Assembly (NCBI GenBank): GCA_016783885.1 | Contig: JADHVR010000001.1 | Location: 54,284 to 118,283, forward strand | Length of the DNA stretch: 64,000 nucleotides | Source of the DNA: Bacteroidales bacterium | Lineage (GTDB): Bacteria; Bacteroidota; Bacteroidia; Bacteroidales; JAADJA01 | Reading direction: 5' to 3' | The notes under the pieces: generated by a model | Seen by the model: the letters and a program-made list of their open reading frames with translations, nothing else | What the model was told of the DNA's origin: nothing | Databases searched by the model: none | Shown here: positions 4,403-63,016 of the stretch, in pieces | How positions within the stretch are numbered: the first letter of the stretch is position 1 | Layout: each line of letters begins with the position of its first letter | Made by a program: the position numbers and the translations under genes

Positions 4403-4729
4403 TTAACGACTGTATAAATAATTTTTTTTTGAATAATTCATAATTTTTTTCTTAATACCACCAAATATCACATAAACAACATCTTCATTTGAATAAATCC
4501 CCACATTTTGCTGATTAGTTTCATCAATGCCGTTAGGCTCACCAAAGTGAAGCAGTAACCTGTTGGGATCATCCCCAATTCCCACATTTCCCGAATTATC
4601 CCTCGCCACAGCCTGGTATTTAAATACTTGTGGTGTCTAAGAATAAGAAAGGATTGCCGAAACAATAATGACCGAAAGAAATAATACAAACTTTTTCAGT
4701 ATAAAAGTTTTTATGGAATTTGATTTCAT
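4403..4729 (-). pseudogene. Decayed paralogue of the N-terminus of the neighbouring tail-fibre-like repeat protein, with an in-frame TAG
   Basis: Reading from the ATG at 4729 gives MKSNSIKTFILKKFVLFLSVIIVSAILSYS*TPQVFKYQAVARDNSGNVGIG.... It aligns to ...ISANAQSPQAFKYQAIVRDATGE of the 747-aa protein. The TAG at 4639-4637 aligns with a Gln, which could be a one-base change (CAA in the paralogue). Confidence 0.6.
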
Positions 4730-4780
4730 AAGGGTGTAAATTTATTGAAATATTGGCTGATCTGCAAATTTGCGTAGATG

Positions 4781-4839: not shown

Positions 4840-7044
4840 TTAATCCAATTGCTTCCAAATCCCGTTAAGATAGCAGTAAATGTGATGGTCTGTTGAATTG
4901 ATATACAGGTCACCTTCTGATGGATCCGACGGAGCGCTGCTTCTCGGCTCAAGACGCATCACATCGCTTATGTGCAGGCTTCTTTGTGGATTTGTAGTGC
5001 CAATACCAACATTGCCATATTTAATTGTCACTGTACTATCAACTGCGCTATACAAAGTATCAGCATCAATTGTCCAGTCGTCATCTCCAGTAAAGCCAGA
5101 ATTAGAAATTACTTTAAGGGTACTGTCAGCAGGGTCCCATGTAACCAGGGAATCAGTTAGTGAGCCTAACACCATATCCTCTATTTTCAAAGCCCCTGCT
5201 ACATGGAGTTTTTCATCGGGATTTATTGTGCCGATACCAACATTGCCATATTTAATTGTCACTGTACTATCAACTGCGCTATACAAAGTATCAGCATCAA
5301 TTGTCCAGTCATCATCTCCAGTAAAGCCAGAATTAGAAATTATTTTAAGGGTACTGTCAGCAGGGTCCCATGTAACCAGGGAATCAGTTAGTGAGCCTAA
5401 CACCATATCCTCTATTTTCAAAGCCCCTGCTACATGGAGTTTTTCATCGGGATTTATTGTGCCGATACCAACATTACCTGCATTATCAATAGCGAATCGT
5501 GTTTCATTTCCTTGTCCGAATGAACGGTCGCGTATGTTAAAACTACCGGTCAGACCATCCAGGTAAAAATCCCACCAAAAATTACCTTCATCACCCTGGT
5601 TTGGCTGATTGCCCCAGATAAGCTCCACGCCCGGAGAAAATGCAGTAGCATCCGTAACCCGCCAGATACGCATTACCGCATCCGTACTGACAAGGTTTAA
5701 CGCACGATTGGCTTTTGTGCTGTTTACAGTATTTCCGAACGCACCTCTGCCGTAAACATGTAAAGGAGTGACTGGTGTTGTTGTGCCAATACCAACGTTG
5801 CCATATTTAATTGTTACTGTACTATCAGCTGCGCTATACAAAGTATCGTTATCAATCGTCCAGTCGTTATCACTGCTTAGACCGGTATAAGAAATTACTT
5901 TTAACTTACTGTCAGCCGGATCCCAGGTTACCAGCGAATCGGATGTGGAGCCTGCTACCATGTTCTCTATTTTTAATGCTCCGGCAACATGTAATTTTTC
6001 ATCCGGATTGGTTGTGCCGATACCAACATTTCCCGAAGTGTCAATGACCATGCGGGTTTCATTACCCTGTCCAAAAGAACGGTCGCGGATGTTAAAACTA
6101 CCGGTCAGTCCATCAAGGTAAAAATCCCACCAGAAATTACCTTCATCACCCTGATTTGGCTGATTGCCCCAGATAAGCTCCACGCCCGGAGAAAATGCAG
6201 TAGCATCCGTAACCCGCCAGATACGCATTACCGCATCCGTACTGACAAGGTTTAACGCACGATTGGCTTTTGTGCTGTTTATGGTATTTCCAAATGCACC
6301 TCTGCCGTTGACATGTAAAAGCGTGACCGGAGAGACAGTTCCGATCCCAACATTGCCGGGTACGGCAGCATACATATCATTTCCCGAGATGGTCCAGTCA
6401 GTATCGTTAATGGCCGAAGCGTGGATCTTTTTCAAAGTGCTGTCAGCAAAATCCCAGGTAACGAGTGAATCGGATAAGGAGCCGGTTGACAATTCTTCTA
6501 ATTTAAGATTACCGGCAACATGTAGCTTAGTATCGGGATTTATGATACCGATACCCACCTTTCCATCTTTAATTGTCACCGTACTATCAGCAGCGCTGTA
6601 TAAAGTATCAGAATCGGCTGTCCAGTCGCCGTCGTTACTGTATCCCGCATTTTCTGCATACAATGCATATGGTACGCTCAATACCTGTGTGGTTCCCATA
6701 GAGGTATAGGCACTTCCTCCATAAGGATCGAGTTCCACCTCCAGAAATTTGGAATTGTTTCCCCAATCAATATCTGCAAATATACCTGTTACCGGTGTCC
6801 CGTTACCAATTTCAAGATTTGCAATCCCGAACTGATTGGTTGTTGTGGCATGTGTCTCCTGGTAAAGGATGGTTCCGACAGCAGATCCGTCGCGTATACC
6901 GATTCGGAAACTAACGTTTTGATTCGATAAAATTTCGCCAGTTGCATCCCTTACTATCGCCTGGTATTTAAAAGCCTGTGGAGACTGGGCATTAGCGGAA
7001 ATAAATAAGAGAAATAAAACAACAAATAAAGCCAGTTTTTTCAT
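4840..7044 (-). CDS. Secreted tail-fibre-like repeat protein (NVGIGT-x-P-x-x-KLHV repeats), probable surface adhesin
   Basis: The signal peptide MKKLALFVVLFLLFISANAQ starts at the ATG at 7044. The ORF-track start at 7083 adds 13 aa. Contains multiple GNVGIGTxNPDEKLHVAG units. The C-terminus is GDLYINSTDHHIYCYLNGIWKQLD. Confidence 0.7.
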   Translation of the reverse strand: MKKLALFVVLFLLFISANAQSPQAFKYQAIVRDATGEILSNQNVSFRIGIRDGSAVGTILYQETHATTTNQFGIANLEIGNGTPVTGIFADIDWGNNSKFLEVELDPYGGSAYTSMGTTQVLSVPYALYAENAGYSNDGDWTADSDTLYSAADSTVTIKDGKVGIGIINPDTKLHVAGNLKLEELSTGSLSDSLVTWDFADSTLKKIHASAINDTDWTISGNDMYAAVPGNVGIGTVSPVTLLHVNGRGAFGNTINSTKANRALNLVSTDAVMRIWRVTDATAFSPGVELIWGNQPNQGDEGNFWWDFYLDGLTGSFNIRDRSFGQGNETRMVIDTSGNVGIGTTNPDEKLHVAGALKIENMVAGSTSDSLVTWDPADSKLKVISYTGLSSDNDWTIDNDTLYSAADSTVTIKYGNVGIGTTTPVTPLHVYGRGAFGNTVNSTKANRALNLVSTDAVMRIWRVTDATAFSPGVELIWGNQPNQGDEGNFWWDFYLDGLTGSFNIRDRSFGQGNETRFAIDNAGNVGIGTINPDEKLHVAGALKIEDMVLGSLTDSLVTWDPADSTLKIISNSGFTGDDDWTIDADTLYSAVDSTVTIKYGNVGIGTINPDEKLHVAGALKIEDMVLGSLTDSLVTWDPADSTLKVISNSGFTGDDDWTIDADTLYSAVDSTVTIKYGNVGIGTTNPQRSLHISDVMRLEPRSSAPSDPSEGDLYINSTDHHIYCYLNGIWKQLD
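5000..5461. repeat. Two tandem 231-bp (77-codon) copies inside the repeat-protein gene
   Basis: 5000-5230 versus 5231-5461 differ at only 3 positions by eye. A third, diverging copy starts at 5462. Confidence 0.9.
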
Positions 7045-11793: not shown

Positions 11794-13452
11794 TTACTTA
11801 CTTACGTCAATATTTTCTTCGGAAATAAGGACGGGTTTGTAGGGCGGGTCAGGATTGCCGCTGTTACTGTCAAGGTTGTATTGATATAACAAAACGACAT
11901 CAATATCTGAACCTGTCCATTCTGCCGGATTGATAATCAAGTAGGTTCTTACCTCATGGCTGCAATCGTCCGCATTGACCCATGAACCGGAGTTTGCGTA
12001 GATACTTGTATATTGTTTTCCGGGTGGATAGACTTCCAGCATGGGTTCATGGGTATGTCCGAACGCGACAACCTTGTAAGTCGTCGGTGCCGGCGGTTGT
12101 TCCATATACTCCGTTTTTGCTGCGACAAATAGGTCGCTGTGACCATTCCATATCGCCTGTAAGCAACATTCGATTGGAACCGGGACCGCATTCTTTACCT
12201 GTGTTGCCGGCCAAAAATCTTCAATGTTAGCAGCGTACATATCTCGCGCTCCGTTAAAGGAGAAAGGATCAGAATAGCCATCGATTCCACCCATTAAGAT
12301 ATTTGTCGAATCAGGTAAAGGCAAAGTCATATCAAAATGCAATATGGTATAAAAATAAGCGATTTCCCATGCAGCCAGAAATTCGAATGATCCCTCAGAT
12401 GCCAGTGCTTCTTTATTCAAAGTCTGTGTAGCCATCCCCTCCGCATACAATCTTGAAATAAAATACCCCGGAGGCAGTATATGATCAGGATTTACAAGTG
12501 ATTGAGGACAATTGAAAAAATCATAACGATGACCATGTTCCATAATAATACCGTTGACGGGTGAATACATTCCAAGACCGGCTACATCCCCTTCCCATAT
12601 AACCCCAGGGATAATTTCCTCCAGTATCTCTTGTGTCATCAGCATGTCATGGTTGCCGGGAACATACACCAGCTCGATTTCTTCATTTAATGCTATCTCT
12701 CTTAATTTGTCGAATATCTCGCTGTTAGTCGGTGAACCTGCAATTGCCAGAAAGTATTCTTTTGTATTATGAATACCTGCCTGGGGATCAATCGGCGATA
12801 CGGTGTAAGGTACCAACCACTCGTCAAACAGGTCTCCAAGAATTACCAATTCCCTCACCTGGTCACCATTCAGAATAAAATCAAGAAAACTCTCCAACGC
12901 CTTTGCATTTTTTCCGAACCAGCAATAGTTCCCTGATACTGCTCTTGGGTCTCCCATGTGGATGTCACTTATGCAAGCGATTGAATTCCGTTGCGTGCTA
13001 CCGCTTAAAGTCAATTTTGTTGTTGTTCTCAGTTCTATTGTCTCATTCTGCCTCAGACTTTCACCGGAAGTAGATTTCAAGCCTGTTGTTATGGTTAAAA
13101 AATACTTCCATCCGTCATACAATTGAAAATCAGAATGAAACGTGATCATTACTTTTTTCCCGGAAATTATTAGGTCGTAATGTAAGCTCAGGGAACCTGA
13201 CTTGTCAGAAAAGGTAATATTACCGGCAACTGTTCCCGTATCTATCGGCTGGCTGAATTCCATTTCGATAGATCGTTCATGATGTTTCAGTTGGTAATAG
13301 AGATCGTGTTTATGTGTCAATCTGGGGAAGGTTACACTTAAATACTGTGATTCTTCAGGTAATTCATCATTCTTTTTACATGATTGCTGGATAATGAACA
13401 AGCAGCTCAAGATCAAAGCTGTTATCAGAAAAAATACTCCTTTTTTTTTCAT
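11794..13452 (-). CDS. Calcineurin-like metallophosphoesterase lipoprotein with an N-terminal Ig-like domain
   Basis: 552 aa. Lipobox LILSC, and the motifs DIHMGD, GDLFDEW, GNHD and GHTHEP. Confidence 0.8.
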   Translation of the reverse strand: MKKKGVFFLITALILSCLFIIQQSCKKNDELPEESQYLSVTFPRLTHKHDLYYQLKHHERSIEMEFSQPIDTGTVAGNITFSDKSGSLSLHYDLIISGKKVMITFHSDFQLYDGWKYFLTITTGLKSTSGESLRQNETIELRTTTKLTLSGSTQRNSIACISDIHMGDPRAVSGNYCWFGKNAKALESFLDFILNGDQVRELVILGDLFDEWLVPYTVSPIDPQAGIHNTKEYFLAIAGSPTNSEIFDKLREIALNEEIELVYVPGNHDMLMTQEILEEIIPGVIWEGDVAGLGMYSPVNGIIMEHGHRYDFFNCPQSLVNPDHILPPGYFISRLYAEGMATQTLNKEALASEGSFEFLAAWEIAYFYTILHFDMTLPLPDSTNILMGGIDGYSDPFSFNGARDMYAANIEDFWPATQVKNAVPVPIECCLQAIWNGHSDLFVAAKTEYMEQPPAPTTYKVVAFGHTHEPMLEVYPPGKQYTSIYANSGSWVNADDCSHEVRTYLIINPAEWTGSDIDVVLLYQYNLDSNSGNPDPPYKPVLISEENIDVSK

Positions 13453-13748: not shown

Positions 13749-15307
13749 ATGACAATTAATAAGTTTATTCAAGCAATTCAAAAAAATAATTATTTCCCGA
13801 AATATTCCAAATGGATTTTCACTTTTTTATTTCTAATAATTTCTATAATATATAATTATCAAGATATTCTATTTAAATCGCCTCAAAGTTTACACCAATG
13901 GAGACAATGCGATTGCTTATCAATCACTATGAATTACTTTCAGGATAATAACCCTTTTTTCGAACCATCAGTTTATTATTTAGGTAGTGATGGCACAGGT
14001 AAAACTGTTAGTGATTTTCCTCTAATATATTTTTCAGTAGCACAATTATGGAAAATTTTTGGACATCACGAATTTATTTATCGACTTATTGTGTTGCTGT
14101 TTTTTTTCTCAAGTCTTATTGCATTGTTTAAAATATTTGAAAATACATTAAAAGATTCAGTATTAGCAATAATATTTCCCTTGTTTTTATTTACTTCACC
14201 CACTCTTGTATATTATGCTAATAATTTTTTAATGGATATTCCGGCATTTTCATTAGCAATTATCGGACTATATTTCTTTTTCAGATTTTATCAGTCATCA
14301 AAGAACAAATACCTGTATTTATTTATATTCTTTAATGCTATTGCCGGTTTATTAAAAATTTCATCTTTAATGAGTTTTATAGCTGTTTTGGGATTATTCA
14401 TGCTCGAATTTTTCAATGTGAAATTGAACCCGGACAGGAAAATATTTCAACATCCGCTAAAGCAAATCTTCCCATTAATTAGTGTCTTGATTATACAATT
14501 AATATGGTATATGTATGCAAGTTATTATAACTCAAATAATAATGCAGGAATTTTTCTAATTGGATATTTGCCAATATGGGACTTAAATATATCTCAAATC
14601 AAGATAACTCTTGATGCAATAAATGAACATATAAAATGGGATTATTTTAGAAAAGAAACTCAATTCGTTTTTATATTTATGTTTATTATAGTTCTTGTGT
14701 TTTATAAAAGGATAAATAAAATAATGCTCTTTTTTACAATTTTTCTTTCAACAGGTTTTCTTTTATTTATTCTTCTGTTTTTCAAGCCCTTAAAGACCAT
14801 GATTACTATACAATAAACTTATTTATCTTAATACCAATCGTAATATTGAGCTTTTTATTACTGTTAAGAAATAAATTCAAAGTAGTTTACACTTCTGTAT
14901 TTTTTAGAATTATTGTAATCGTATTTCTTATACATAACGTTGACTTTGCAAGAAGAAGAATTGAAGGTCGATATAGTCACAAAGGATGGCAAAACAAAAA
15001 TTACATAGATAGTATTCAGCCATTTGAGGAAATTACCCCATATCTACGATCCATTGGGATTAAAAAAAGTGATAGAGTAATTAGTTTATCGGATAATAGT
15101 ATAAATATTAGTTTATATTTAATGAATCAAAAGGGATGGACAAACTATGGAATATCAGCAGATAGTATAATAATTAAAGAAAAGATCAATCTTGGAGCAA
15201 AATATCTTTTAATATATAATAAAGAAACATATGAAGAGCGAAGTATTCAACCATTTATTGAAAATAAAATAGGTGAATTTAAGAATATTGATATCTATGC
15301 ATTATAA
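13749..15307 (+). pseudogene. Polytopic GT-C-like (PMT_2/ArnT-like) membrane protein split by a frameshift near 14790
   Basis: ORF 13749-14816 is very hydrophobic. The frame of ORF 14846-15307 is open back to 14720. Across the junction it reads ...LKDHDYYTINLFILIPIVILSFLLLLRNKF, continuing the membrane protein. One extra A in the AAA run at 14792-14794 would fuse the two frames. Confidence 0.55.
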
Positions 15308-15358
15308 AACTACGACAAATATAAAGCAAGGGATTATTCTGCGAAGCAGCATTAATTC

Positions 15359-15442
15359 CTTGCTCATCTTGATTTGTGCAGCAGGTAAGTGGGAAGGATA
15401 ATACCGATGAAAATAATTATTGGATTTATAATCTGTGCAACA
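15359..15442 (+). repeat. Copy A of an ~85-nt direct repeat bracketing the fused accA-accD gene
   Basis: cttgctcatcttgatttgtgcagcaggtaagtgggaaggataataccgatgaaaataattattggattt...tgtgcaaca. Roughly 75-80 percent identical by eye to 17803-17890. Confidence 0.7.
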
Positions 15443-15553
15443 GGCACATTATACAAACTGTTATATCCCTAACCGTACAGCTAAACCATTATAATTTCCG
15501 AAAAACGGCATAAACGACAATTTTTTCTCCTTTCCCGGTTTTACTTTGTGAAT

Positions 15554-15691
15554 TTACGGAATTAATATTCCTGAGGTTTCTCCTACTATCAGTCCGGCTA
15601 TAATGTTGGCAGGAAAATGCTTACCTGCTTTGTATCGGTATAATCCCAGAATTGCAGAATCGAAGGCTTTTGAGACAGTCTCGATTTTTAG
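15554..15691 (-). pseudogene. C-terminal remnant of a PAP2-family phosphatase
   Basis: 45-codon open frame with no start: LKIETVSKAFDSAILGLYRYKAGKHFPANIIAGLIVGETSGILIP*. R-x5-H-x3-N matches PAP2 motif 3 (SRxxxxxHxxxD) with D changed to N. It abuts the acc gene stop. Confidence 0.45.
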
Positions 15692-15699
15692 CTAAAGAT

Positions 15700-17568
15700 T
15701 TAATTCTTCCTGAAATCCCTGATCCTGCCTGTTCTTTTTCTTATGTCGGGGAATTTTATAACATAGAAAATATCCACATAATAAGACAAAATATTTTTTA
15801 AATCTTTCCTGTTAACTAAATGTTGTATTTTTTTAGTTTCATAAAGTTTATCAGTGCAAACAATATCTCTGTCAACATCAAAACCTGCCCCGGTAACTAC
15901 TCTAGGCCCGGCAAATTCAACTAAGGCACCTTTCTCTCCAATTATAACATCTCCCTGAGTAACATAGCTGGCATAAGCTCCACCTGTAGTAGGTCCTGTA
16001 ATAACAGATAAATATAATATTCCTTTTCTTTTCAAATCTAATAAAGACATATTCATTTTTGCCATCTGAGCCAAAGCCATAGGCCCTTCATTCATTCTTG
16101 CCCCGCCTGAAGAACACACTGATATTAAAGGATAATTATTCTTTACAGCAAAATCAACAGCTCTTTTAAACTTTTCGCCAAATACTGCACCAAAAGACCC
16201 GCCAATAAATTTTATATCAGATATTACCAGAACAATATTCTTTCCATTCATCTTAGCAGTACCTGTTACCAAACTTTCTTTAGAAAAGGTTTTTCCATCC
16301 ATTCTTTCTAATAATTTTTTATAACTGCCATAATTATATCTTCTGCTTCCAATTAATTGTTTAATAGTTAAATCCGATTCTGTTTCATGAAATGAATCAC
16401 TATCACAAATCTTTGTTATTTGCTCTTCAATACAAAGATATTCGCCTTTCCCACACTTAGGACATGCATAAAAATTATCTATATATTCCTTTAAAGAAAC
16501 AAAACCACAACCACCGGCAACTTTAAATATGTTTTTTTCTTTATCCCATTCTTTTTCACATTCAAATATTTCTGTTTCATCAATACCCTCTTTTTCCAAA
16601 TGTGCTTTTATTAATATCTGAGTATAAAAATCTTCCCTCTCAATATCAATAGTTTTAATATTATTATGATTATGCACATTTCTTTTTATTACTCTTTTTG
16701 CAAGGGCTCCTAAAGTGTCATAAAATTTTCCATAATTCAATACCTTTTCTCTTCTCTCTTTCAATAATTTTTTAAGAGTTCTCTTGCTCATAACTTTTTT
16801 CCCTTTTTGATAAGGGCGCACCCATTCATTTAAGGCCTTAGTTAGAGATTTTTTTATTGTATTTATTGTAAATTTATAATTATTATGTGCTCCTTCTTTT
16901 GGTTCGGGAAGAATATCATCGATCATACCGATTTTTTTTATATGTTCCGCACCCGGACGCAATACCTCTAAAGCATCTTTCACTGTATCTTCTATGTCTT
17001 CGCCAGCAGTTAGTCTATTATGAAATATGATTCTGCTGCAACTTTCAGGGGCAATTACTGAATAGAGCGCATTTTCTAACATGTAGCTTTTATCACTTAC
17101 CTGAAAACCTAAAGCGCCACCACTTCCGCCCTCACCAATAATATAGGATACTGTGGGAGTTTTTACTTCACAAAATCTGCTAATACAATCGGAAATTAAA
17201 AATGATTGCCCGCCAAGCTCCGACTCCATTGAAGTGTCTCCACCAAAAGTATCAATAAATGAAATTACAGGTATTGTATTTTTTTCTGCTTCATCTAATA
17301 TATCAAGAGCAAATCCATAGCCTTTTGAGGTCAACATTCCGGTTGCTTCGCTATTTTTTCCCTTTCTTCTTTTCTCCTGTCCGAGTATTATGCAATCTAT
17401 TTTATTAATAGTTCCTTTCGCTGCAATAAGAGAAGGATCGGGTGATTTATAATAAGATATACTTTCAAAGACACTTTTAATAACATCGGAGCTTCTTATT
17501 CTTTTGGGATGCCTGATTAAATCATACCGATCTTTCAAGTTTCTTTTTGGTGTATGTTTTTTTTTCAT
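15700..17568 (-). CDS. Fused acetyl-CoA carboxylase carboxyltransferase, alpha (AccA-like) then beta (AccD-like) in one polypeptide
   Basis: 622 aa. N-terminal half: IPVISFIDTFGGDTSMESELGGQS...YIIGEGGSGGALGFQV...YSVIAPESC (AccA). C-terminal half: ACPKCGKGEY..., FIGGSFGAVFGEKF..., CSSGGARMNEGPMALAQMAK..., TGGAYASY..., FAGPRVV (AccD). Confidence 0.85.
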   Translation of the reverse strand: MKKKHTPKRNLKDRYDLIRHPKRIRSSDVIKSVFESISYYKSPDPSLIAAKGTINKIDCIILGQEKRRKGKNSEATGMLTSKGYGFALDILDEAEKNTIPVISFIDTFGGDTSMESELGGQSFLISDCISRFCEVKTPTVSYIIGEGGSGGALGFQVSDKSYMLENALYSVIAPESCSRIIFHNRLTAGEDIEDTVKDALEVLRPGAEHIKKIGMIDDILPEPKEGAHNNYKFTINTIKKSLTKALNEWVRPYQKGKKVMSKRTLKKLLKERREKVLNYGKFYDTLGALAKRVIKRNVHNHNNIKTIDIEREDFYTQILIKAHLEKEGIDETEIFECEKEWDKEKNIFKVAGGCGFVSLKEYIDNFYACPKCGKGEYLCIEEQITKICDSDSFHETESDLTIKQLIGSRRYNYGSYKKLLERMDGKTFSKESLVTGTAKMNGKNIVLVISDIKFIGGSFGAVFGEKFKRAVDFAVKNNYPLISVCSSGGARMNEGPMALAQMAKMNMSLLDLKRKGILYLSVITGPTTGGAYASYVTQGDVIIGEKGALVEFAGPRVVTGAGFDVDRDIVCTDKLYETKKIQHLVNRKDLKNILSYYVDIFYVIKFPDIRKRTGRIRDFRKN

Positions 17569-17802
17569 TTTGATTTGTATATTATTATTTATAAAATAAT
17601 ATCAATTTGAAAAATTGAAACAAAAATAAACTTATATTTTCTTTTAATTATTCCGAAAAGTGTTTTAAAGACAGAATATAAACCTGAAAAAGGGTGCAAG
17701 GTAAAAAAAATTTGAATAATAAAAATTATTCTTTAAAATCTCAGCTTTCATATAATACTGAAATTTTACTTTCCTCCCTCGCCTGCAGGTTTAAGTTTAA
17801 AA

Positions 17803-17890
17803 CTTGCTCATCGGGATTTGTACGGCAGGTAAGGGAGAAGGGTAACCCAGATGAAAATAACTATAGGATTTGAAAAACTCCTCTGCAACA
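17803..17890 (+). repeat. Copy B of the ~85-nt direct repeat
   Basis: cttgctcatcgggatttgtacggcaggtaagggagaagggtaacccagatgaaaataactataggattt...tctgcaaca. Lies 2444 bp from copy A. Confidence 0.7.
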
Positions 17891-18039
17891 TTAATTTCAG
17901 GCTTTTCAAATATTCTAACTTTTTTACCTATTTTTGAATTTCGCATCCCGAAGCTTCGGGACTATTGCGTTGTGAGTAATTATAATAAGTGACAATTCAT
18001 ATAATAGATAGTATTAAAAATGACAAAAAAATTAAAGCT

Positions 18040-19098
18040 ATGAGAAGATTTTTATTTTTAATTATTGCATTATCCATTGTGGTTAATCTAATTGCTCAAA
18101 TGACAGTTGATTTACCAAAAGTTGTATTTGTGGATTATCAACCTGAGAATCGAGAATGGTTTGTCAGATACGGACAATTCCAGATTAATTTTGAATATGA
18201 AGAGAATCCGTCTAATGGATTAGTTTTCGTTAAAAATGCAAATAAGCAAATTGAAAGAATATCAAAATGCTTGGAAATAGCAAAGAAAAATGAAATTGAT
18301 GTTATTGTTTTTCCCGAAGTTACTATGTCTTTACCTGAAGATATATGGGTTAAAACTGTTAAAATGCTTGAAAAATACTCTAAAGAGAATGATGCAATAA
18401 TAATAGCCGGAACCTTCTATGACAGTAAAAGAACCTGTAAGAATTTAATAGTTTTGCCAACAGGTATTTACTACACTTATAAAATAAGACCTTCTATTTT
18501 TGAAGCCTCACCTGTTAGGGGAGAAGGAATGTTATTAAATGACACATTACATGTTTTCAGAACAAAATATGGAAACTTTTTGACTCTTGTCTGTGTTGAT
18601 TTAATATCTGACGATGCTAATTATATTGCAAGAAACTTAAGCAATAAAGGTTTAATAGATATGTTAATAAACATTAACTTTAATCCTAAATCCCAGGAAT
18701 TTATGAGAGAGGCCTCTTCAATGGTAGTCAGACATCCTTTATTTGTGAGCTTAACTAATGTTTCTTTGTTTAAATCAGGTTGCACTATCGATGGCAATGA
18801 ATATGGCAATACATCTGTTTTTGGTTCAATTACTTCATTTGACAATAACTCTTTCAAAAGTAAATTATTAACAAATATTCCTGATTGCTATAAGACACAA
18901 GATAAAAAACAGTTACAACCGGCATATAAATCTTTATTAGGGATAATCAGCCCTGAAATTGAGGGAGTCCTTATTTATGATTTAAACTTAAGAGTAATTA
19001 GAACACCTCAGGTAAATAATGCACCTGATCAAGGTTATCCTACTATAAAAAATATTGAAGTAATTGAAATTAGCAACAAAAAAACTGAGAATGAATAA
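18040..19098 (+). CDS. Exported/anchored carbon-nitrogen hydrolase (nitrilase superfamily) protein
   Basis: The ATG at 18040 (MRRFLFLIIALSIVVNLIAQ) is preferred over the GTG at 17989. E-K-C triad candidates: VIVFPEVTM, YTYKIRPS, LTLVCVDL. Confidence 0.6.
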   Translation: MRRFLFLIIALSIVVNLIAQMTVDLPKVVFVDYQPENREWFVRYGQFQINFEYEENPSNGLVFVKNANKQIERISKCLEIAKKNEIDVIVFPEVTMSLPEDIWVKTVKMLEKYSKENDAIIIAGTFYDSKRTCKNLIVLPTGIYYTYKIRPSIFEASPVRGEGMLLNDTLHVFRTKYGNFLTLVCVDLISDDANYIARNLSNKGLIDMLININFNPKSQEFMREASSMVVRHPLFVSLTNVSLFKSGCTIDGNEYGNTSVFGSITSFDNNSFKSKLLTNIPDCYKTQDKKQLQPAYKSLLGIISPEIEGVLIYDLNLRVIRTPQVNNAPDQGYPTIKNIEVIEISNKKTENE

Positions 19099-50349: not shown

Positions 50350-50391
50350 TTTTTACTTTTATTCAGAAAGAAAATAAAACAACCTTTCTAT

Positions 50392-50427
50392 GGAGTTAAT
50401 TCTATTTTTTACAAAAAGGTTACCCTC
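50392..50427 (-). promoter_or_regulatory. Motif copy 1: GAGGGTAACC-N14-AGAATTAACTCC (upstream of the histidine kinase)
   Basis: Minus strand reads GAGGGTAACCTTTTTGTAAAAAATAGAATTAACTCC, ending 42 nt before the HK start codon. Confidence 0.6.
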
Positions 50428-50509
50428 AAAATCCAACTTTTTTTCAACAAAAAATTAAATGAGCTGATATACAAGGTGTTATAAGGGCGTTTTTTTTTTA
50501 AAAAAATCG

Positions 50510-50545
50510 GAGGGTAACCTTTTTGTCTTTTTTAGAATTAACTCC
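50510..50545 (+). promoter_or_regulatory. Motif copy 2 (upstream of the T9SS cargo gene)
   Basis: GAGGGTAACCTTTTTGTCTTTTTTAGAATTAACTCC, ending 102 nt before the ATG at 50648. Confidence 0.6.
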
Positions 50546-50647
50546 TAAGATTATTTTAGTTTTCAATAATAAATTAAGAAAAAATGTATTTAAATTTCCA
50601 ATTAAAAAAATTATTTTATTTTAGCAACTTTATTAAAATTTAGAATT

Positions 50648-56696: not shown

Positions 56697-56702
56697 TAAT
56701 CA

Positions 56703-56738
56703 GTAGTTAATTCTAAAATTCGACAAAAGGTTACCCTC
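56703..56738 (-). promoter_or_regulatory. Motif copy 3 (upstream of the ECF sigma gene)
   Basis: Minus strand reads GAGGGTAACCTTTTGTCGAATTTTAGAATTAACTAC, with the same 36-nt architecture as copies 1 and 2. Confidence 0.6.
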
Positions 56739-56880
56739 TTTTTTATACTTTTTTTCAACAAAAAAGTTAACTGATTGAATATCAGATAAAAAAAATCATA
56801 TTATTTTAGAGGATAAAAAGTTATTTACAGTACAATTTTAGAAAAAAAAAAGGTACGTTAAACAAAAAACGTACCTTTAA

Positions 56881-62664: not shown

Positions 62665-63016
62665 GAAAGACTTAAACTCAACTTTCGCAGTTTATTATAT
62701 AAGCATTTCGTATTATACATCCAATATCCTGAATAAGCATTATTAATGGCAGTCTGTGCAAAAACCACTATTGTTTTTTAATAGGGATTTTAAACCGACA
62801 CTGAACAAATACACATACGATAATCGGGTATTCGCCAATCGAATTTTCATCAATTATTTGTTCCCTTTTCATATTTAACCATATTCATCGAATAACATCT
62901 AATTCTCTGGTGAATATACTCTTACCTTTAATTCTCCTCTCGCTATAATTTGTTAATAAAATTTAATCCCTGAATCGTATAACAAATCTGTAAAAAAGGA
63001 GTTATTTCAATACTAT

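Follow-up and report, generated by a model that had tools for sequence, protein, structure and literature searches.

The direct repeats flanking a fused carboxyltransferase gene of an uncultured Bacteroidales bacterium probably belong to a dispersed, modular intergenic family

In an uncultured Bacteroidales bacterium (assembly GCA_016783885.1, contig JADHVR010000001.1), a gene encoding a fused AccA-AccD carboxyltransferase (acc hereafter) is bracketed by two copies of a short direct repeat, copy A and copy B, whose nature is the subject of this analysis. In the window (the full 64,000-nt stretch that was analyzed), acc lies between a PMT_2-family glycosyltransferase gene and a gene for a 369-aa hydrolase-like protein, and its stop codon abuts what resembles the tail of a PAP2 phosphatase gene (Table 1). 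Contigs from relatives or metagenomes that were used for comparison carry L-numbers.

Table 1. Features of the acc locus, in window coordinates.
Feature	Position	Strand	Remarks
PMT_2-family glycosyltransferase gene	13749-15307	+	Pfam PMT_2; upstream of copy A, ends 51 nt before it
Copy A	15359-15445	+	truncated element, 5' module only; R1 85.5 bits
Copy A hairpin	arms 15365-15374 / 15400-15409; loop 15375-15399	+	3 mismatches
Copy A GGATT-TAT-AATC	15422-15433	+	followed by the TGTGCAACA box
PAP2-like pseudogene remnant (probable)	15464-15691	-	45 codons (15691-15554), in-frame TAA, 30 more codons (15553-15464)
Fused AccA-AccD carboxyltransferase gene	15700-17568	-	622 aa; Pfam ACCA residues 12-264, Carboxyl_trans residues 412-559
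acc homology, L006	17726-15700		84% nt identity
acc homology, L011	17712-15677		94% nt identity
acc homology, L005/L009/L010	17758-15694		94% nt identity
Copy B	17803-17978	+	176-nt full element without inner hairpin 2; nhmmer 17802-17978, E 2.9e-51
Copy B hairpin	arms 17809-17818 / 17844-17853	+	2 mismatches or bulges
Copy B CTCTGCAACATTAATTTCAGG box		+	
Copy B -7-box-like TATTTTTG	17929-17936	+	
Copy B leader hairpin TCCCGAAGCTTCGGGA	17946-17961	+	
Hydrolase-like gene	18042-19098	+	secreted, carbon-nitrogen-hydrolase-like; homologues named predicted amidohydrolase, some with PF00795

The initial annotation of this DNA had described two same-orientation copies of ~85 nt, 2444 bp apart, around the acc fusion, and this description was confirmed. 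A repeat finder returned a direct pair at 15359-15427 and 17803-17871 (69 nt, 83% identical, 2444 nt from start to start), and the similarity survived formal alignment, with a blastn E value of 4e-15 between copies A and B. Past a 4-nt indel, a TGCAACA box (TGTGCAACA / CTCTGCAACA) prolonged the similarity in a MAFFT alignment to ~15445 and ~17890.

Outside the locus, the same sequence was found at least 10 more times in contigs of metagenome-assembled genomes (MAGs) and metagenomes of related Bacteroidales, usually just ahead of an unrelated gene that has the same orientation. A pattern derived from the conserved core of the repeat was run against a genome collection and, likewise, against metagenomes, with exact matches demanded in both scans; the copies found were used to build a profile hidden Markov model (HMM), and a covariance model, R1, was used for confirmation. 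Matches at unrelated loci were obtained in L014 and L015 from the genome collection and in L016-L018 from the metagenomes (L016 being a twin of L015), so the repeat is not private to the acc locus. In all, at least 12 modules are present in the window, L014, L015, L017, L018, L019 and L020, and R1 scored the copies outside the window at 44-91 bits.

The arrangement of the modules varies from contig to contig. L014, part of a MAG whose other contig holds a 95%-identical acc, was found with the profile HMM to contain three modules, one truncated and one inverted, and in L015 a 143-aa open reading frame (ORF) is flanked by copies with a spacing of 804 nt. The full unit of L018 (10547-10800) comprises a tandem pair of modules and is accompanied in that contig by three more modules (one inverted) and a stand-alone 3' part; single intergenic clusters thus hold both orientations in L014 and L018. 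These two contigs also share a 336-nt block that is 86% identical between unrelated loci (L014 1449-1783 and L018 10375-10708) and holds the same truncated-plus-full module pair in both. Composite module arrangements have thus been duplicated in their entirety. Viral contigs matched neither half of the element, and a marginal covariance-model match at L011 3572-3651 was unconvincing on inspection.

The modules also combine with other short repeats, for example with a second family seen in L011 and L018. This second dispersed intergenic repeat, of ~175 nt, is 86% identical between L011 792-966 and L018 12635-12803, again unrelated loci; in L011 it adjoins the acc promoter block on its upstream side, and in the window its match is a 39-nt partial one (62745-62783).

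A full unit spans ~175-250 nt and has four parts: a 5' hairpin module, a GGATT...AATCC helix, a 3' part with a -7 box, and a short leader. On the + strand, the unit begins with CTTGCTC, followed by a 10-bp stem (consensus arms CATCGGGATT and AATCCCGATG) enclosing a 25-nt purine-rich loop, which in the canonical unit reads TGTGCGGCAGGTAAGCGGGAAGGAT. The 3' arm is followed by an A-rich linker, GGATT, an optional hairpin CCTGCC...GGCAGG and AATCC, the outer helix being kept while its insert varies. Beyond AATCC lie a CTCTGCAACATTAATTTCAG box, then AACTTTTTTACCTATTTTTGAATTTCG, which contains TAnnTTTG, and a short variable leader, with a same-strand start codon 20-110 nt past the unit.

Covariation in the hairpin was scored over the 10 stem pairs of 11 complete modules, with 500 shuffles and slid registers as controls. 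Pairing was retained in 90% of the cells, compared with 25-53% in the slid registers, changes on both sides had occurred at 4 of the 10 pairs (14 cells), and the observed covariation score was matched by none of the shuffles. Arm pairs that illustrate these changes are CATCGGGATT/AATCCCGATG, CTTTCGGATT/AATCCGAAAG, TTTTCGGATT/AATCCGAAAA and CGTCCGGATT/AATCCGGGCG. An earlier count that included truncated copies was not significant, and significance held only with the complete variant modules added. The pattern of substitutions shows that the hairpin stem has been kept by compensatory changes. The covariance analysis proposed in the initial annotation thus yielded a covarying stem but no known RNA family: in Rfam 15 only tRNAs reached the gathering score, nothing meaningful appeared at E values up to 10 over 15250-18100, and L014 and L015 had no match at E up to 1. 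When the two window copies were folded individually, on either strand, they did not surpass shuffled sequence (z from -1.4 to +0.3). A likeness of the loop, seen by eye, to the RNase P P11/P12 region or to domain IV of the signal recognition particle RNA was unsupported by Rfam, and a hammerhead-like CGATGAG was discarded as the core U is absent.

The consensus TAnnTTTG is that of the Bacteroidetes sigma-A -7 box, known from Bacteroides promoters. In copy B, TATTTTTG matches it exactly, and the match is conserved in all full copies; across the window, TAnnTTTG stands 5-150 nt upstream of 13 of the 47 genes, against ~10% expected. The genes that follow the units are on the same strand and unrelated to one another: the 369-aa gene after copy B, genes of 143 and 310 aa in L015, a secreted protein in L017, an M17 aminopeptidase in L014 and, in L018, a 408-aa gene as well as a 517-aa gene after the stand-alone 3' part. 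Several of the downstream genes appear to encode secreted or membrane proteins. From the motif, the 3' part would supply promoter and leader to whichever gene lies downstream, and copy B is predicted to be the promoter region of the 369-aa hydrolase-like gene. The ORF listed for this gene starts at a GTG at 17989; translation likely begins at the ATG at 18042, with a signal-peptide-like MRRFLFLIIALSIVV following it. The acc gene has a -7-box-like motif of its own at 17628-17621.

Copy A, which ends after the TGCAACA box, does not have the promoter-bearing 3' part. Its extension to ~15555 by alignment of the promoter part was rejected: positions 15464-15553 are the conserved tail of the PAP2-like frame, which is open in L019, and copy A therefore ends near 15445. 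Copy A is a truncated, decaying relic between two convergent gene ends. It is 92.8% identical to its L019 orthologue, where the adjacent coding sequence (CDS) is 99.3% identical; for copy B, the 5' module is 85.5% identical to its L020 orthologue and the leader plus CDS 97%. Over the promoter part and leader, orthologues agree at 93-97%. As the orthologous modules diverge faster than their surroundings, the 5' module is under little constraint at both window loci.

The affiliation of copy B can be judged from L020-L022, which derive from the same samples as L011 and are colinear with the window from 17787 onward through copy B, the 369-aa gene, tsf, rpsB, rpsI, rplM and the nqr genes. In place of acc, what precedes copy B in these contigs is a 68-aa ORF and a hairpin resembling a terminator. 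Because copy B is kept there without an adjacent acc, its conserved position assigns it to the 369-aa gene rather than to acc. The synteny break relative to the L011 lineage lies no more than 16 nt from the 5' edge of copy B. The three contigs, which are independent assemblies, all stop at one point, a direct duplication of GGGGATTTACTTTTGC some 765 nt ahead of the 369-aa gene, which looks like an assembly break at another repeat.

In our judgment, the two repeats are probably members of a dispersed, modular, non-coding intergenic family, promoter-bearing by motif, of an uncultured Bacteroidales lineage, and were not made by the arrival of acc. The family is best read as a mosaic resembling miniature inverted-repeat transposable elements (MITEs) and bacterial interspersed mosaic elements (BIMEs). 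Its units would spread or shuffle by some copying or recombination mechanism, for which the hairpin is a likely recognition structure; we infer the mobility of the units from their distribution. The acc gene would be bracketed only because it sits between two intergenic regions each with a copy. Synteny between close relatives breaks at element edges, an indication that the repeats may also act as rearrangement hot spots.

Several observations weigh against this dispersed-family interpretation. No partner transposase was found in the ~250 kb of sequence retrieved. Canonical copies have no terminal inverted repeats, their 5' CTTGCTCATCGGG... and 3' ...GAATTTCG..ACTATTRYGTT not being inverted relative to each other, and the composite of L014 alone ends in an inverted module. 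The flanks of 8 copies, checked by eye, showed no consistent target-site duplication. The exact-match scans gave five loci only, and the 64-kb window itself holds just two copies (85.5 and 80.4 bits with the unfiltered profile HMM and R1, the next match reaching 14 bits). The proposed promoter role is drawn from a consensus motif, and the strong covariation together with a single + strand G-U pair would fit a transcribed RNA equally well.

Among described repeats, the closest case within the phylum is BrickBuilt of Porphyromonas gingivalis, which is described as multi-copy, strictly intergenic and modular, with leader and tail subunits and a narrow host range, and as having segments with promoter elements able to drive neighboring genes (PMC4596501). 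The present family is likewise strictly intergenic, modular, multi-copy and of narrow range, with a promoter by motif only. It shares no sequence with BrickBuilt, has no 23-nt minisatellite core, and its canonical copies lack the small inverted-repeat ends of that element.

Correia elements of Neisseria (CREE/NEMIS) are dispersed intergenic repeats of ~100-150 bp that often lie upstream of genes, contribute promoters and are linked to rearrangements. The likeness extends to the short, dispersed, intergenic character of our repeat, its frequent position upstream of genes, its promoter motif and its association with rearrangements, whereas the 26-bp terminal inverted repeats and TA target duplication of Correia elements were not found here. 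With the repetitive extragenic palindromes (REPs) and BIMEs of Enterobacteria and Pseudomonas, the family has in common a stem-loop with preserved pairing that occurs singly or in clusters, in both orientations and mixed with short modules. REPs, however, are tight palindromes of 20-40 bp with GTAG or CGTC heads that are mobilized by RAYT transposases; the module described here has a 10-bp stem and a 25-nt loop, begins with CTTGCTC and has no GTAG or CGTC head. Direct repeats with hairpin potential around single genes, such as the L015 copies, also recall integron attC sites or attL-attR pairs. Unlike in attC sites, no RYYYAAC or GTTRRRY cores were seen and the arm sequences are conserved between copies; unlike in attC cassettes, the bracketed genes each have their own promoter-like box, the L015 gene also has its own terminator, and no integrase was seen beside any copy. 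Because strict membership fails for MITEs, REPs and attC sites, we class the repeats as a new family within a general type that is already known.

A functional RNA or regulatory element, which the initial annotation had offered as its second choice, is closer to the evidence than its first, although in the specific form of a structured RNA we regard it as unlikely. Here the 5' module or the whole unit would be a structured non-coding RNA, either a small RNA present in multiple copies or a cis-acting leader whose transcription starts from a -7-like box immediately before CTTGCTC; the hairpin and the competing GGATT/AATCC pairings would then regulate the downstream gene. The covariation of the stem speaks for it, as do the single wobble pair (U-G in L014c), which is standard on the + strand only, the consistent orientation to the downstream gene, the occurrence, 3-7 nt before several copies, of boxes like TA(A/G)GTTTA or AATCTTTG, and the conservation of the second helix around a variable insert. 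Against it stand the lack of any Rfam match at permissive thresholds, window copies that fold no better than shuffled sequence and have both stems damaged, the truncated and inverted modules within single intergenic clusters, the rapid divergence of orthologous modules relative to their flanks (85.5% against 97%), and the location of the best -7 box on the downstream side of the module, so that the mRNA would not include it. A related and rather improbable proposal takes the 75-nt 5' module for an undescribed structured nucleic acid with a covarying 10-bp stem, a conserved purine-rich loop (also written GUGCGGCAGGUAAGCGGGAAGGAU) and GGAUU/AAUCC pairings that offer alternatives; such a module might serve as a regulatory RNA in multiple copies before genes, several of them apparently for secreted or membrane proteins, or as the recognition hairpin or guide-like RNA of a mobilization system new to Bacteroidota.

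The first choice of the initial annotation had been that acc arrived by insertion or duplication and left the repeats behind. In its sharpest form, the repeats would be junction duplications (the end of a gene in duplicate, or sites of att type) that arose as an acc segment inserted into or next to a PAP2 gene. The arrangement invites this idea, with direct repeats that bracket a single gene and a truncated gene, with homology to 93-95% relatives ending within tens of bases of acc on both sides, and with acc neighbors that differ in every relative examined. It is nevertheless largely refuted, and we give it very little weight. The same element occurs at unrelated loci, copy B persists at its orthologous site without acc alongside, and the two copies are of unequal extent (176 nt for the full one, ~87 nt for the truncated one). 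Between the copies there is nothing but acc and the PAP2 remnant, with no integrase or transposase; nor is there a recombinase beside the acc segment, whose neighbors are the PMT_2 and hydrolase-like genes. The GC profile, which the initial annotation had singled out for checking, is unremarkable over acc. Nor did relatives show an empty site with one copy and joined flanks: L019 shares the arrangement of the window, L020-L022 keep copy B behind unrelated upstream sequence, and L005 keeps acc beside a fragment of a 552-aa gene. Insertion as the origin of the repeats is thus not supported.

A further point against junction duplication comes from L005, in which a ~130-nt fragment (4633-4761, corresponding to window 13433-13308) of the 5' coding region of this gene, the 552-aa metallophosphoesterase gene of the window, lies ~50 nt after acc. 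The fragment has in-frame stops and is present in the L005/L009/L010 lineage. Because L005 keeps this piece by acc, the two genes were already linked in the common ancestor, and L005 is most simply a deletion derivative. In L005, L009 and L010, an ORF remnant upstream of acc was considered as a transposase, and CCCCCTGCTCGTACGGATTT as the end of an insertion sequence, with no support from Pfam or NCBIfam; the module match beside the remnant in L005/L009 is marginal (21.5 bits, E 0.012).

The PAP2 remnant itself, reported in the initial annotation as directly adjoining acc, is in part upheld. The 45-codon start-less frame (15691-15554) is present, reads LKIETVSKAFDSAILGLYRYKAGKHFPANIIAGLIVGETSGILIP up to its stop codon and contains the R-x5-H-x3-N motif, but its match to Pfam PAP2 (PF01569; profile positions 90-125 of 130) has an E value of 0.005 and 17 bits, below the cut-off of 27.2. 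The best solved structure was the PAP2 phosphatase LpxE (6ebu; E 0.48, over the C3 motif). The sole database relative is a 62-aa ORF in L019, where a GAA replaces the TAA of the window and the frame runs on to ...FFGNYNGLALRLGI and a stop codon. The C3 motif R-x5-H-x3-D, aligned to that of 6ebu, reads RYKAGKHFPAD in L019 and ends in ...PAN in the window. Motifs C1 (KxxxxxxRP) and C2 (PSGH) are absent, the frame running upstream for 45 codons to a stop codon that shares sequence with the 3' end of acc, and with them the N-terminal two-thirds of PAP2; no intact homologue was found, the same remnant occurring in L019 only. A PAP2 phosphatase beside a PMT_2/ArnT-like glycosyltransferase makes biological sense. 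The remnant is probably a pseudogene tail that comprises the final ~70 codons of a PAP2-type gene in decay, an identification that is plausible but weak. Since L011 homology reaches 15677, the first ~5 codons (15691-15677) are probably ancestral acc 3' flank. Homology to relatives ends at 15694 or 15677, placing a rearrangement junction at the acc stop codon. As that stop abuts a decayed PAP2-type tail, an old rearrangement joined the two, and the upstream part of the remnant was lost at 15677-15694.

A coding origin for the repeats, either as the remnant of a C-terminal membrane helix on the minus strand or as a leader with first codons (MKI..) on the plus strand, is refuted by the other copies and can practically be dismissed: both frames proposed in the initial annotation do exist and stay open over the repeat, and the minus frame ends at a shared TGA with only synonymous differences in its last two codons (Ser and Arg), but that frame is 27 codons long with no ATG, GTG or TTG start in L015, L016 or L017 (which equally discounts a small membrane protein or type I toxin), the plus-strand ATG (of ATG-AAA-ATA) merely coincides with the final three bases of the 3' arm and gives way to AAAG, AAAA or GGCG in variant modules, a 4-nt indel breaks the frame between the window copies, and substitutions pair across the stem rather than following codon position. 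With no start in the transmembrane-tail frame and no plus-strand ATG in the variant modules, the element reads as non-coding.

Around the repeats, some further features of the locus were noted. In the acc fusion, the alpha (AccA) domain comes first and the beta (AccD) domain, with a CxxC zinc ribbon, second, an architecture kept in 335 Bacteroidota metagenomic proteins of 40-100% identity. In L005, L006, L007 and L011, conservation is limited to acc with ~150-190 nt on its upstream side and no more than 23 nt beyond its end, and toxin-antitoxin genes lie beside acc in two close lineages (ParE-like in L005, MazF/PemK in L011). In L019, a 96% relative, acc, the PAP2 remnant, copy A and the PMT_2 gene are arranged as in the window. 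Identity between the two is a mosaic over 14469-17343: 99.3% at 14469-15307, 99-100% at 15428-15553, 92% at 15554-15691 and 94.8% in the acc CDS, which suggests a strain recombination breakpoint near 15554, inside the PAP2-like remnant.

The PMT_2 gene is a single ORF in L019; in the window, the loss of one T from a run near 14778 (T5 in the window, T6 in L019) splits it into ORFs of 355 and 153 aa. The same split appears in the gene calls of two further contigs of this genome (L001 and L002), which makes a genuine frameshift or pseudogene probable. At 11800-13200, the 552-aa metallophosphoesterase/Big_5 gene has a GC content of 41-47%, compared with 35% in the window and 25-27% in the adjacent PMT_2 gene. 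Elsewhere in the window, 4882-6627 holds tandem-like repeats with a period of 231 nt (units of 198-300 nt, 61-86% identical) that probably encode a repeated protein domain. A 41-nt inverted repeat with GAGGGTAACCTTTTTG (80% complementary, 82 nt apart) occurs at 50387-50550, a third related copy lying 6.2 kb away at 56702-56770.

The repeats thus represent a previously uncatalogued family, with no match in Rfam, from uncultured sediment Bacteroidales. For the acc fusion, a false lead is removed: the gene is not mobile-element cargo, and the repeats that bracket it are probably ordinary dispersed repeats. The family bears on the assembly of MAGs, in which contigs break near repeats, and may be relevant to the spread of promoters and the shuffling of genomes in Bacteroidota.

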